Shown: positions 1 to 1,983 of the stretch, piece after piece | Numbering within the stretch: the stretch's first letter is position 1 | How the letters are laid out: every line of letters starts with the position of its first letter | NCBI RefSeq assembly: GCF_044324875.1 | Contig: NZ_CP172192.1 | Origin: Escherichia coli | GTDB lineage: Bacteria; Pseudomonadota; Gammaproteobacteria; Enterobacterales; Enterobacteriaceae | Length of the DNA stretch: 1,983 bases | Reading direction: 5' to 3' (one strand) | The notes under the pieces: generated by a model | Told to the model about the DNA's origin: nothing | Databases searched by the model: none | The model's input: the letters and a program-made list of their open reading frames with translations, nothing else | Position numbers and translations under genes: made by a program

Positions 1-33
1 TGCGCGGTCCGACATTCCCACATCCTGTCCCGA
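1..33 (-). repeat. Inverted-repeat arm, proximal 33 bp (reverse complement of 289..321), truncated by the window start
   Basis: Exact 33/33 reverse-complement match to 289..321. Together with 1933..1983 it reconstitutes the full 84-bp arm if the window ends are joined. Confidence 0.95.
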
Positions 34-288: not shown

Positions 289-372
289 TCGGGACAGGAT
301 GTGGGAATGTCGGACCGCGCACGCTCGCTCAGACATTCCCCACCTGGTCAGGGCTTCGCCCCGACACCCCGC
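289..372 (+). repeat. 84-bp arm of a perfect inverted repeat (internal copy)
   Basis: Compared by eye base by base: reverse complement of 322..372 equals 1933..1983 and reverse complement of 289..321 equals 1..33, with no mismatches. Identity stops at 373 versus 1932 and at 288 versus 34. Confidence 0.95.
301..343. other. Nested stem-loop inside the repeat arm
   Basis: GTGGGAATGTC (301..311) pairs with GACATTCCCCAC (332..343), one extra C as a bulge, around a 20-nt GC-rich loop. The same structure exists in the other arm across the window junction (1964..1973 with 11..19). Confidence 0.6.
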
Positions 373-513
373 CAACGCCTCACGGCACGCGAAAAAATTC
401 CGCGTACCGCTCACCGTTCTTGAACTCGTCAAACAGAAAATCGCGGGGCCCCGCGCCTCCGGCGTGGGTTCCGATTTTGTGATTGACGACGGCACGGGGA
501 AAACGCTGGGTAT

Positions 514-568
514 GGTGGTTGGTGTCACGGAGTGAGGCCAACCACCTGCAAGACGGTTTTTTGTTGTT
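514..568 (+). other. Stem-loop followed by a T-rich tract
   Basis: GGTGGTTGG (514..522) pairs perfectly with CCAACCACC (538..546) around a 15-nt loop. TTTTTTGTTGTT (557..568) follows after a 10-nt gap. Confidence 0.3.
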
Positions 569-601
569 CACAAAATTGGGGTGAAAGTCTGTGGATGAGA
601 T

Positions 602-634
602 GGGTGTAAGTGGGTGGGGTTGGGAGGTTTTGGG
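602..634 (+). other. G-run cluster fitting a G-quadruplex motif
   Basis: GGG 612..614, GGGG 616..619, GGG 622..624, GGG 632..634 with loops of 1, 2 and 7 nt, plus extra G-runs at 578..581 and 602..604, within a GT-rich stretch 577..640. Confidence 0.3.
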
Positions 635-675
635 TTACTGAAAATCCAGCTCAAAATTCAAGCAAATCTCGCGCG

Positions 676-711
676 CGATCCTTGTATTTATACTTAAGGG
701 ATAACTCTAGG
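676..711 (+). promoter_or_regulatory. AT-rich island with a second nick-site-like motif; alternative dso or rep promoter region
   Basis: CTTGTATTTATACTTAAGGGATAACTCTAGG (681..711) is the only AT-rich stretch in an otherwise GC-rich window. CTTGTAT resembles CTTGATA, and TAAGGGATAACT resembles the TAAGGGTAACT that I recall downstream of the pC194 nick; that recollection is unverified. Confidence 0.2.
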
Positions 712-943: not shown

Positions 944-1933
944 ATGAAAAACCCTAAACTCCAGTACCTCACTGATTATTCCCCCTCTGACGCGCCCTGG
1001 GACGCACACAGAAGCGTTTCTGACGACGTGGGAGGGATTTACCTGCTTGCGGCCGAATATGAGCGCTACGGGGCTCGTATGGCCTCCTGTGGCGGTTTAC
1101 TGCGTTTCGGGTGGTCTACCCTCAAGGAAACCGGAGAAACGCGTCTGAGGCTGCGTGAGGCGCATTTCTGCCGTGTCCGGCACTGTCCTGTCTGCCAGTG
1201 GAGGCGCTCCCTGATGTGGCAAGCCCGTTTCTACCAGTCCCTGCCGCGTATCGTGGCGGATTACCCTGATGCCCGCTGGATGTTCCTGACCCTGACCGTG
1301 CGCAACTGTGCGATTGGGGAACTGGGCGAGATGCTGAACCGGATGAATGCAGCTTTTCAGCGTATGAAGGTTCGCAAGGAGTTCCTGCCTGTTCAGGGCT
1401 GGATCCGCACAACGGAAGTTACCCGCGGCAGCGACGGCAGCGCGCATCCCCACTTCCACACCCTGATGATGGTGCCGCCCTCAATGCTATCTGGTGACGG
1501 GTACGTAAAACATGCTCGCTGGGTTGAACTCTGGCGGGAGTGCCTGCGGGTCAGTTACAACCCGAATGTTGATGTCCGGGCAGTAAAACCCCGTAAGCCA
1601 AAGGATGGCGAGTCCTTAGCCTGCGCGACCGCTGAACTGGTGCGCGGCGCAGTGGCCGAAACCCTGAAATATTCCACGAAGCCGGCTGACATGGTGGCCG
1701 ATCCTGAATGGTTCCTCGAACTGACCCGCCAGACGCACAAGCGCCGCTTTGTGGCGACCGGCGGCGCACTCAAAGACGTGCTGAAACTCGATCAGGAAAC
1801 CGACGCCGACATGGTGATCGGGGATGATATTTCCGAGGGCGACGATGACGGTTCACGCATCGCGTTCGAGTGGAAAACCGAGGTCAGAAAGTACCGTCGC
1901 TCACCGACGAAAGATAAAACTGAATCAGGCTAG
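944..1933 (+). CDS. rep: Rolling-circle replication initiator protein, HUH endonuclease of the pC194/pUB110 (Rep_1) class
   Basis: 332-codon ORF 935..1933 in the supplied track. Translation carries motif I FLTLT (nt 1283..1297), motif II HPHFH (nt 1445..1459, the HUH metal-binding motif) and motif III ETLKYSTK with Glu four residues before Tyr (Tyr codon 1670..1672), the arrangement known for pC194 RepA. Start is ambiguous: GTG at 935 or 938, or ATG at 944 preceded by GGTGG (934..938) at Shine-Dalgarno spacing; I chose 944. Stop TAG 1931..1933. Confidence 0.9.
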   Translation: MKNPKLQYLTDYSPSDAPWDAHRSVSDDVGGIYLLAAEYERYGARMASCGGLLRFGWSTLKETGETRLRLREAHFCRVRHCPVCQWRRSLMWQARFYQSLPRIVADYPDARWMFLTLTVRNCAIGELGEMLNRMNAAFQRMKVRKEFLPVQGWIRTTEVTRGSDGSAHPHFHTLMMVPPSMLSGDGYVKHARWVELWRECLRVSYNPNVDVRAVKPRKPKDGESLACATAELVRGAVAETLKYSTKPADMVADPEWFLELTRQTHKRRFVATGGALKDVLKLDQETDADMVIGDDISEGDDDGSRIAFEWKTEVRKYRRSPTKDKTESG

Positions 1934-1983
1934 CGGGGTGTCGGGGCGAAGCCCTGACCAGGTGGGGAATGTCTGAGCGAGCG
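1933..1983 (-). repeat. Inverted-repeat arm, distal 51 bp (reverse complement of 322..372), truncated by the window end
   Basis: Exact 51/51 reverse-complement match to 322..372. Begins at the last base of the rep stop codon. Confidence 0.95.

Follow-up and report, generated by a model that had tools for sequence, protein, structure and literature searches.

Organization of the plasmid

The window, by which we mean the whole 1983-bp stretch of DNA that was analysed, represents a complete circular plasmid, 100% identical to NC_005002.1 (pB, a plasmid of Salmonella Enteritidis with the ColpVC replicon type) and 99.5% identical to NZ_MF156267.1, a 1982-bp Escherichia coli plasmid from the faeces of a healthy adult, which we take to be pBuzz (Moran and Hall, 2019, Plasmid 101:10). 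Both pBuzz and pB are termed rolling-circle plasmids in the literature, pBuzz being described as carrying two inversely oriented oriTs, and no difference at the level of the plasmid separates the window from pB or from pBuzz. In the order of the coordinates, an oriT mimic is followed by a predicted Ff-type minus origin, a linker, a predicted nick core, the rep gene and a second oriT mimic (Table 1).

Table 1. Features of the 1983-bp plasmid, in coordinates of the window
Feature	Position	Strand	Basis or remark
oriT mimic, inverted-repeat arm	289..372	-	- strand would be transferred
Hypothetical CDS	299-535	+	NC_005002.1 annotation, WP_000263637.1
Two-hairpin element, proposed single-strand origin (sso)	425..562	+	Homology to Ff phage (M13/f1) minus-strand origin
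Hairpin B	426-489, inner stem 450-468	+	Fold, alignment
Hairpin C	514-546	+	Possible lower stem: A-run 499-504 with T-run 555-562
Variable GT-rich, C-poor linker	563..669 (~107 nt)	+	Separates minus-origin element from plus-origin core
G-run cluster	602..634	+	Canonical G4 motif with one spare run
Predicted plus-strand (double-strand) origin core, CGCGCGCG-ATCCTTGTATTTATACTTAAGGGATAAC	670..705	+	Comparison with relatives, pC194, pUB110
rep	944..1933	+	Rep_1 rolling-circle initiator, pC194/pUB110 family
Second oriT mimic, inverse orientation	1933..1983, across circle junction into 1-33	+	G-rich + strand would be transferred

The product of rep, annotated as ‘protein rep’ in NC_005002.1, belongs with Rep_1 by its match to Pfam PF01446 (E=7.8e-85; 284.8 bits against a cut-off of 33.2), contains the motifs HPHFHTLMM and ETLKYSTKP, and is 26-29% identical (tblastn) to the Rep regions of pC194 and pUB110. 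Judged by sequence, the plasmid is a rolling-circle replicon of the Rep_1 (pC194) type. The single other annotated CDS ends upstream of the G-run cluster, leaving the latter in an intergenic region, as the earlier note had placed it. This CDS begins within one of the oriT arms and crosses both of the minus-origin hairpins and, as the minus-origin element varies between 130 and 142 nt in length across relatives, with differences that are not multiples of 3, the open reading frame is not conserved and hence is probably not a gene.

In the interval from the nick core to rep (705-860), several hairpins are recognizable, including CCTTGtcccgCAAGG at 732-746, which is retained with altered stem bases in relatives, and CCCCCG..CGGGGG at 814-842. 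These could possibly represent a pKYM-like enhancer or HU site, or RNA elements controlling rep. An Rfam search of the window returned no RNA gene, even at E values of up to 1.

A perfect 84-nt inverted repeat extends across the junction of the circle and flanks a segment of 255 bp. Its arm has matches in 589 conjugative plasmids, and the plasmids matched by the arms are of the I-complex (IncK2/Z, MOBP, MPF_I). When compared to an IncK2/Z plasmid, the arm is 92.5% identical over 53 nt, at a position 12 bp upstream of mobA (nikA-like) and relaxase genes, and thus its similarity lies where that of a mimic of an I-complex oriT should lie. By this similarity, the arms correspond to the pair of inversely oriented oriT mimics reported from pBuzz, and it is because of them that a megablast search with the window matched as many as 1663 conjugative plasmids.

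Predicted origins on both sides of the linker

The two-hairpin element upstream of the linker resembles the minus-strand origin of the Ff phages. A BLAST search of phage genomes pointed to M13/f1 (positions 5655-5749) and to the intergenic region of the Erwinia inovirus PEar6, with E values of 0.1-0.4 that are weak alone; the alignment of the element with M13 5619-5749 extends across both hairpins and includes long identical blocks (GGGTTCCGATTT, TCACGnAGTG, and CCTG..GACGGTTTTT). Across 21 sequences including those of M13 and PEar6 (alignments A1 and A2), 52 columns are invariant, and 93.8% of cells form the proposed pairs, versus 32-45% in slid controls, these counts leaving out the lower stem of hairpin C, which was read from the sequences. 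Compensatory changes affecting both sides are found in 8 pairs, and the observed value was reached by none of 500 shuffles. With the homology of the hairpins, the compensatory changes and a position 5' of the predicted nick on the strand predicted to be displaced, we conclude from the comparison that the element most likely is an Ff-type single-strand origin. In the Ff phages (M13/f1/fd), likewise, the minus-origin hairpins [B] and [C] are located directly 5' of the plus nick, while the plus origin and the initiator are of the pC194 type in pB and of the gpII type in M13, the distance from hairpin C to the nick is ~135 nt in pB versus ~45 nt in M13, and M13, unlike pB, possesses no G-run cluster in this interval.

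The primer of f1 presumably starts at position 5756, 7 nt beyond the T-run, and runs back into hairpin [C]; by analogy, the primer for the complementary strand of pB would start at about 565-570. The minus origin of M13 is used by RNA polymerase (PMC7948647), the plus-strand nick being at 5781/5782 (PMC11765958), and priming by RNA polymerase would be expected, by the same analogy, in pB.

Two other interpretations of this element were considered and abandoned. One was that of an intrinsic terminator, formed by hairpin 514-546 and the T-run 557-562, for the open reading frame that ends at 535. However, the T-run starts 10 nt past the stem, the terminator scan made no call, the hairpin is homologous to hairpin [C] of M13, the T-run matches GGTTTTT of M13 and can pair with the upstream A-run, and the open reading frame itself is not conserved. 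The other, suggested by the presence of the element near repA of IncFII plasmids (see below), was that of a primase site of the phage G4 type (the ‘G site’ of IncFII plasmids), which was dropped once the element had been aligned with the M13 minus origin; the origin of phage G4 was not among the matches of the element. No relevant account of an sso or a G4 in these plasmids emerged from searches of the literature.

The element occurs in 53 distinct variants among the small rolling-circle plasmids retrieved, with hairpin C in some (L049, L050, and L081) identical or near-identical to that of M13. Virulence plasmids of Salmonella (IncFII/FIB) likewise contain it, at ~75% identity and 630-740 bp downstream of repA (L162 3001-3112 and L163 3001-3112).

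As to the plus strand, 16 related plasmids were compared after being anchored on the near-invariant block CGCGCG-ATCCTTGTATTTATACTTAAGGGATAAC (window 670-705). The nick core is identical in 14 of them, the remaining two (L007 and L011) diverging from ~694 onward. The 25-mer CCTTGTATTTATACTTAAGGGATAA (680-704) was found as an exact match in at least 120 metagenome contigs and in 23 genome contigs, the latter including diverse Proteobacteria (Acetobacter, Gluconacetobacter, Legionella, Marinobacter, Rhodosalinus, Salinivibrio, Vogesella, Xenorhabdus, and Vreelandella); a Streptococcus hillyeri contig with the 25-mer has a coverage of 1.2x and looks like contamination.

The plus origins of pC194 and pUB110 have been mapped. 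Their nick regions (TCTTGATAATAAGGGTAAC and TCTTGATACATATAGAAATAAC, respectively) are located upstream of rep on the rep-coding strand, and the respective sequence of the window (CCTTGTATTTATACTTAAGGGATAAC) is found at the same position and on the same strand. Thus, pB has in common with these plasmids the Rep_1 domain, the placement of the predicted nick region, and the pattern CTTG...TAAGGG(A)TAAC, although its core is longer than that of pC194 and its heptamer is CTTGTAT versus CTTGATA of the family type, the position of the nick here being a prediction. From this comparison, we infer that 670-705 is the double-strand origin, with the Rep nick predicted within about 684-695, and that the + strand is the one nicked and displaced; the G-runs would therefore be exposed as single-stranded DNA. 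That the replicon passes through a single-stranded stage, as presumed in the earlier note, agrees with its Rep_1 type, and the alignment with pC194 and pUB110 points to the + strand as the one displaced.

Further upstream, the sequence AGCGTAGCG lies ~20 nt before the nick region of pC194, and we take it to be the ssoA CS-6 motif. In both pC194 and pUB110 a single-strand origin is located just upstream of the double-strand origin, and in pB the predicted sso is likewise directly upstream of the nick; it is of the Ff type and not ssoA, and the hosts are Proteobacteria, unlike for the pC194/pUB110 family.

The two divergent relatives, L011 and L007, match the pB type up to ...TATACT and then continue with a different right half, ATAGGCAACAAC, which is closer to that of pUB110 (ATATAGAAATAAC), and their Rep proteins are 44-49% identical to that of pB. 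Their origin looks like a hybrid produced by recombination at or near the nick site, and the switch point at ~694 may mark the position of the nick.

The G-run cluster and the composition of the linker

The cluster lies within the linker, in the sequence tGGGtgtaagtGGGtGGGGttGGGaggttttGGGttactg (601-640), and comprises five runs of at least three G (GGG 602-604, GGG 612-614, GGGG 616-619, GGG 622-624, and GGG 632-634) separated by loops of 7, 1, 2 and 7 nt. With a canonical G4 motif defined as at least four runs of at least three G on one strand with loops of 1-7 nt, a regular expression recovers two overlapping motifs, 602-624 and 612-634, and found no other canonical motif on either strand of the whole plasmid. 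The four runs with loops of 1, 2 and 7 nt on the + strand reported in the earlier note correspond to 612-634, while the start at 602 brings in the fifth run by means of an additional 7-nt loop. The surroundings are GT-rich, as also stated there: the 81 nt of 560-640 contain 34 G, 28 T, 15 A and 4 C. Scoring of G4 propensity, which had been proposed as a check, yields G4Hunter values of 1.76 for 602-634, 2.04 for 612-634 and 1.92 for the best 25-nt window, all above the threshold for high propensity, which reportedly lies at about 1.5.

Folding into a quadruplex is thermodynamically plausible by prediction. The + strand of 560-660 has no stable Watson-Crick structure when folded as DNA (-5.5 kcal/mol, z=0.06), and the linker belongs to the least structured 2.4% of the plasmid's windows; it is because such competing base-paired structure is lacking that the five runs may be able to fold into a G4. 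Loops as short as 1 and 2 nt favour the stability of such structures. ViennaRNA run with its G-quadruplex option, the energy model of which is approximate for DNA, places a three-tetrad G4 in the minimum-energy structure, with a gain of ~10 kcal/mol.

Against chance, the cluster is only moderately unusual. When the whole plasmid is shuffled with its dinucleotides preserved, a canonical motif appears on either strand in 8.2% of shuffles and a G4Hunter maximum of at least 1.92 in 7.6%, while shuffles preserving the local composition of 547-680 contain a canonical motif in 1.4%. The linker has 6 runs of at least three G versus 2.4 expected from mononucleotide shuffles (p=0.005) and 4.1 expected from dinucleotide shuffles (p=0.06). 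It is the local richness in G and poverty in C, rather than how the runs are arranged, that gives the strongest signal. As a source of the GT skew, deamination of cytosines in the single-stranded intermediate was considered and rejected, because the GC skew is small in the region immediately 3' of the nick (0.06-0.18 at 700-900 versus 0.65 at 551-650), a rejection that rests on the reasoning that this region should stay single-stranded the longest.

It may be the composition of the linker that is selected, with the G-runs as a side effect. According to one version, a stretch that is rich in G and T and poor in C cannot pair with itself and would provide an unstructured, SSB-coated spacer, letting the hairpins of the minus origin and of the nick site fold independently; according to another, the C-rich, G-poor transcript of the - strand would load Rho and stop antisense transcription into the origins. 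The 100 nt preceding the core in 111 distinct upstream regions do show a bias of this kind (mean fractions of G 0.31, C 0.20, T 0.28 and A 0.21; 2.4 G-runs versus 0.9 C-runs), the linkers of pB, L004 and the pKYM-like plasmids are within the least structured 1-9% of their own plasmid's windows in most variants, and the length from hairpin to core is nearly constant, ~130 nt in 29 long-linker variants. However, the L003- and L006-type linkers fold in an ordinary manner (40th-60th percentile), and a whole class of plasmids has a linker that is shorter by ~65 nt. The version involving Rho is further opposed by the absence of a promoter-like site, as a consensus scan for sigma-70-like promoters found none in the linker on either strand. 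We consider selection on composition to be unlikely.

Distribution of the G-runs and their likely significance

Among the 111 distinct upstream regions sharing the exact nick core, only 12 possess a canonical G4 motif on the strand of the core, and none possesses one on the opposite strand. Ten of the 12 represent a homologous tract of the pB type; the two others come from contigs, L116 and L135, that are G+C-rich and unrelated. Only ~6 other canonical motifs were found in ~302 kb of sequence from the family, on both strands. The G4 tract thus looks like a single event inherited by the pB clade.

The distances between the minus-origin hairpin and the core fall into two classes, of ~130 nt and of ~60-68 nt, and the tract is missing from the latter. 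Even the closest relatives of pB may lack the tract. One example is L003, whose Rep is 97.3% identical to that of pB and whose nick core is the same, but whose linker has one G3 run. Other examples, again with the same nick core, are L012 (Rep also 97.3% identical) and L016 (94.8%), whose linkers are ~65 nt shorter, with the tract absent. Conversely, the pB tract is present in L011 and in L009, with Rep proteins only 44% and 74.5% identical, respectively. As the tract is thus absent beside Rep proteins of 97% identity and present beside those of 44% and 74.5%, it appears to move with the minus-origin cassette, uncoupled from Rep and from the nick site, and a Rep-specific binding site was rejected as its function on the same grounds. 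The effect on lagging-strand priming or on Rep access, proposed in the earlier note, is not borne out by these occurrences, nor by the conservation of individual positions. Among 13 closely related variants of the pB type, a sample that leaves the test underpowered, 1 of 16 G-run columns varies versus 10 of 95 other linker columns (Fisher p=1.0), or 3 of 16 versus 26 of 95 (p=0.55); conservation in the G-run columns does not exceed that elsewhere in the linker.

Other linkers of the long class are variable in their G content. Those of the L003, L005 and L006 types are GT-rich with one or two G3 runs, those of L004 and L048 have at least four G-runs with loops of 7, 1 and 11-12 nt, and that of L008 (pKYM-like) has at least four with loops of 15, 10 and 10 nt and no canonical motif. 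G3 runs exceed the expectation from composition in pB only, and not in the L003, L004, L005, L008, L017, L027 or L048 types. The runs, then, are not kept in relatives that share the neighbouring elements, as those of a functional G4 should be, and the linker that holds them appears, from this comparison, to be dispensable and fast-evolving.

Overall, the G-run cluster is probably an incidental, lineage-specific and unselected feature of a variable linker. Its quadruplex potential is best seen as a by-product of the composition of a linker, rich in G and poor in C, that emerged a single time and passed by descent to the pB clade, because plasmids with the same Rep, nick core and minus origin exist without the G-runs or without the whole tract. 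Weak or lineage-specific selection is not the best reading; it is conceivable because of the density of the runs, which is above chance in pB (at least five runs inside 33 nt in only 0.64% of shuffles), the G-run linkers in sister types, the retention of at least four runs in 9 of 9 pB-subclade variants sampled, where only the spare run 632-634 is hit, and the presence of the tract on differing Rep backbones.

The proposed course of replication also would place the cluster away from the priming site. Rep would nick the + strand, which would be displaced as a single-stranded circle, and the host RNA polymerase, as in f1, would prime at the hairpins, starting at ~565-570 and proceeding towards lower coordinates. 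The linker would be unpaired in this intermediate, where its five G-runs could form a three-tetrad intramolecular quadruplex. Because synthesis of the complementary strand would run to lower coordinates and round the circle, copying of the linker would come last, before the polymerase reaches the 5' end of the primer. The cluster, lying 35-67 nt from the predicted primer start towards the 3' end of the template, would be outside the priming site, and any effect of a G4 would be to delay completion of the complementary strand rather than to alter priming or Rep access.

An alternative is that a G4 in the displaced + strand is regulatory, slowing the completion of the complementary strand or hindering RNA polymerase or Rep at the neighbouring origins, and so tuning the copy number within the pB clade. 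The location of the cluster would suit such a role, at the distance just given from the predicted start of the primer, 47-50 nt 5' of CTTG in the nick core and on the strand predicted to be displaced, and so would the high G4Hunter values, the two short loops, the spare run, the lack of a competing hairpin, the at least four runs in every pB-subclade variant sampled, and the G-runs in the L004-type and pKYM-like linkers. Nevertheless, the motif is absent or deleted in plasmids with Rep proteins of 95-97% identity and identical origins, the G-run positions are not preferentially conserved, no other lineage is enriched in G-runs over its composition, and the cluster lies outside both of the elements that are conserved by homology. 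A regulatory role is therefore, in our estimation, improbable.

Conjugative mobilisation presents another alternative, with the G4 acting as a handle for the coupling protein of a helper plasmid. There is a precedent for this in pIGRK of Klebsiella, which resembles pB in being a small enterobacterial plasmid mobilised in trans with a G-rich, G4-predicted tract in its non-coding control region. The putative G4 in the minimal oriT of pIGRK is required for transfer but not for nicking, and TrwB, the coupling protein of R388, prefers G4 DNA (PMC8152469). The only mobilisation equipment of pB is its two inverse oriT mimics of the I-complex type, and transfer from the copy at the circle junction would involve the G-rich + strand. 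However, while the tract of pIGRK is inside the minimal oriT, that of pB, where the G4 is a prediction, is at least 230 nt from either oriT copy, and the two do not co-occur: 27 oriT-positive upstream types, including L003 and L005, do not have the motif, and the pKYM-like plasmids possess G-runs but no oriT mimic. Coupling of the tract to the oriT mimics was rejected, as no association was found across the upstream types, and a role of the quadruplex in mobilisation seems highly improbable.

If the pB/pBuzz clade did carry a G4 serving as a brake or handle built into the + strand, be it displaced or transferred, which we regard as quite doubtful, the brake would delay the final gap-filling and set the level of the single-stranded intermediate and the copy number, and the handle would be recognised in mobilisation by the coupling protein of the helper plasmid. 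Either would amount to regulation by a DNA structure, specific to one lineage, in a rolling-circle plasmid that has oriT sequences only and no relaxase. It would be a rare case in bacteria of a plasmid controlled by a DNA structure on an intermediate of replication or transfer that is single-stranded, and would be easy to test in a replicon of only 2 kb that is common in Salmonella and E. coli. The comparative evidence, as it stands, suggests that the G4 is not needed, and that a motif of textbook quality in the ‘right’ place can be incidental. A by-product of this work is a map of the non-coding region of pB (oriT mimic, Ff-type minus origin, variable linker, and pC194-type nick core, the origins as predicted here) for studies of plasmids of the ColpVC/pBuzz type, its most useful part being the Ff-type minus origin, which appears to be common to many small proteobacterial rolling-circle plasmids.

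Further observations concern pKYM (Shigella sonnei, RepK), which is, like pB, a small enterobacterial rolling-circle plasmid of the Rep_1 type. Its origin is described as a region of 173 bp, comprising the core and an HU-binding enhancer downstream of the core (PMC4439123); on this account, the plus origin of pKYM does not include the linker located upstream of the core. A 2101-bp Shigella plasmid (L008), which we assume to be a close relative of pKYM on the basis of its host and size, has a Rep 69% identical to that of pB. It has three features in common with pB, namely the nick core, a GT-rich linker containing G-runs, and minus-origin hairpins in which compensatory changes are seen.

Outside the homologous linker, L083 and L116 both carry a separate canonical G4 motif, GGGGAGCGGGTAGGGGTGCAGGGG, ~1.18 kb downstream of the core, at an equivalent position in the two, and an 80-nt poly-G run at -123 in L108 looks like a sequencing artefact. 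The pKYM-like plasmids of Shigella and E. coli (~2.1 kb) have a series of rising G-runs (GGG, GGGG, GGGGG, and GGGGGG) in the linker homologous to that of pB, the last of which varies from 5 to 7 G between isolates, suggesting homopolymer slippage.
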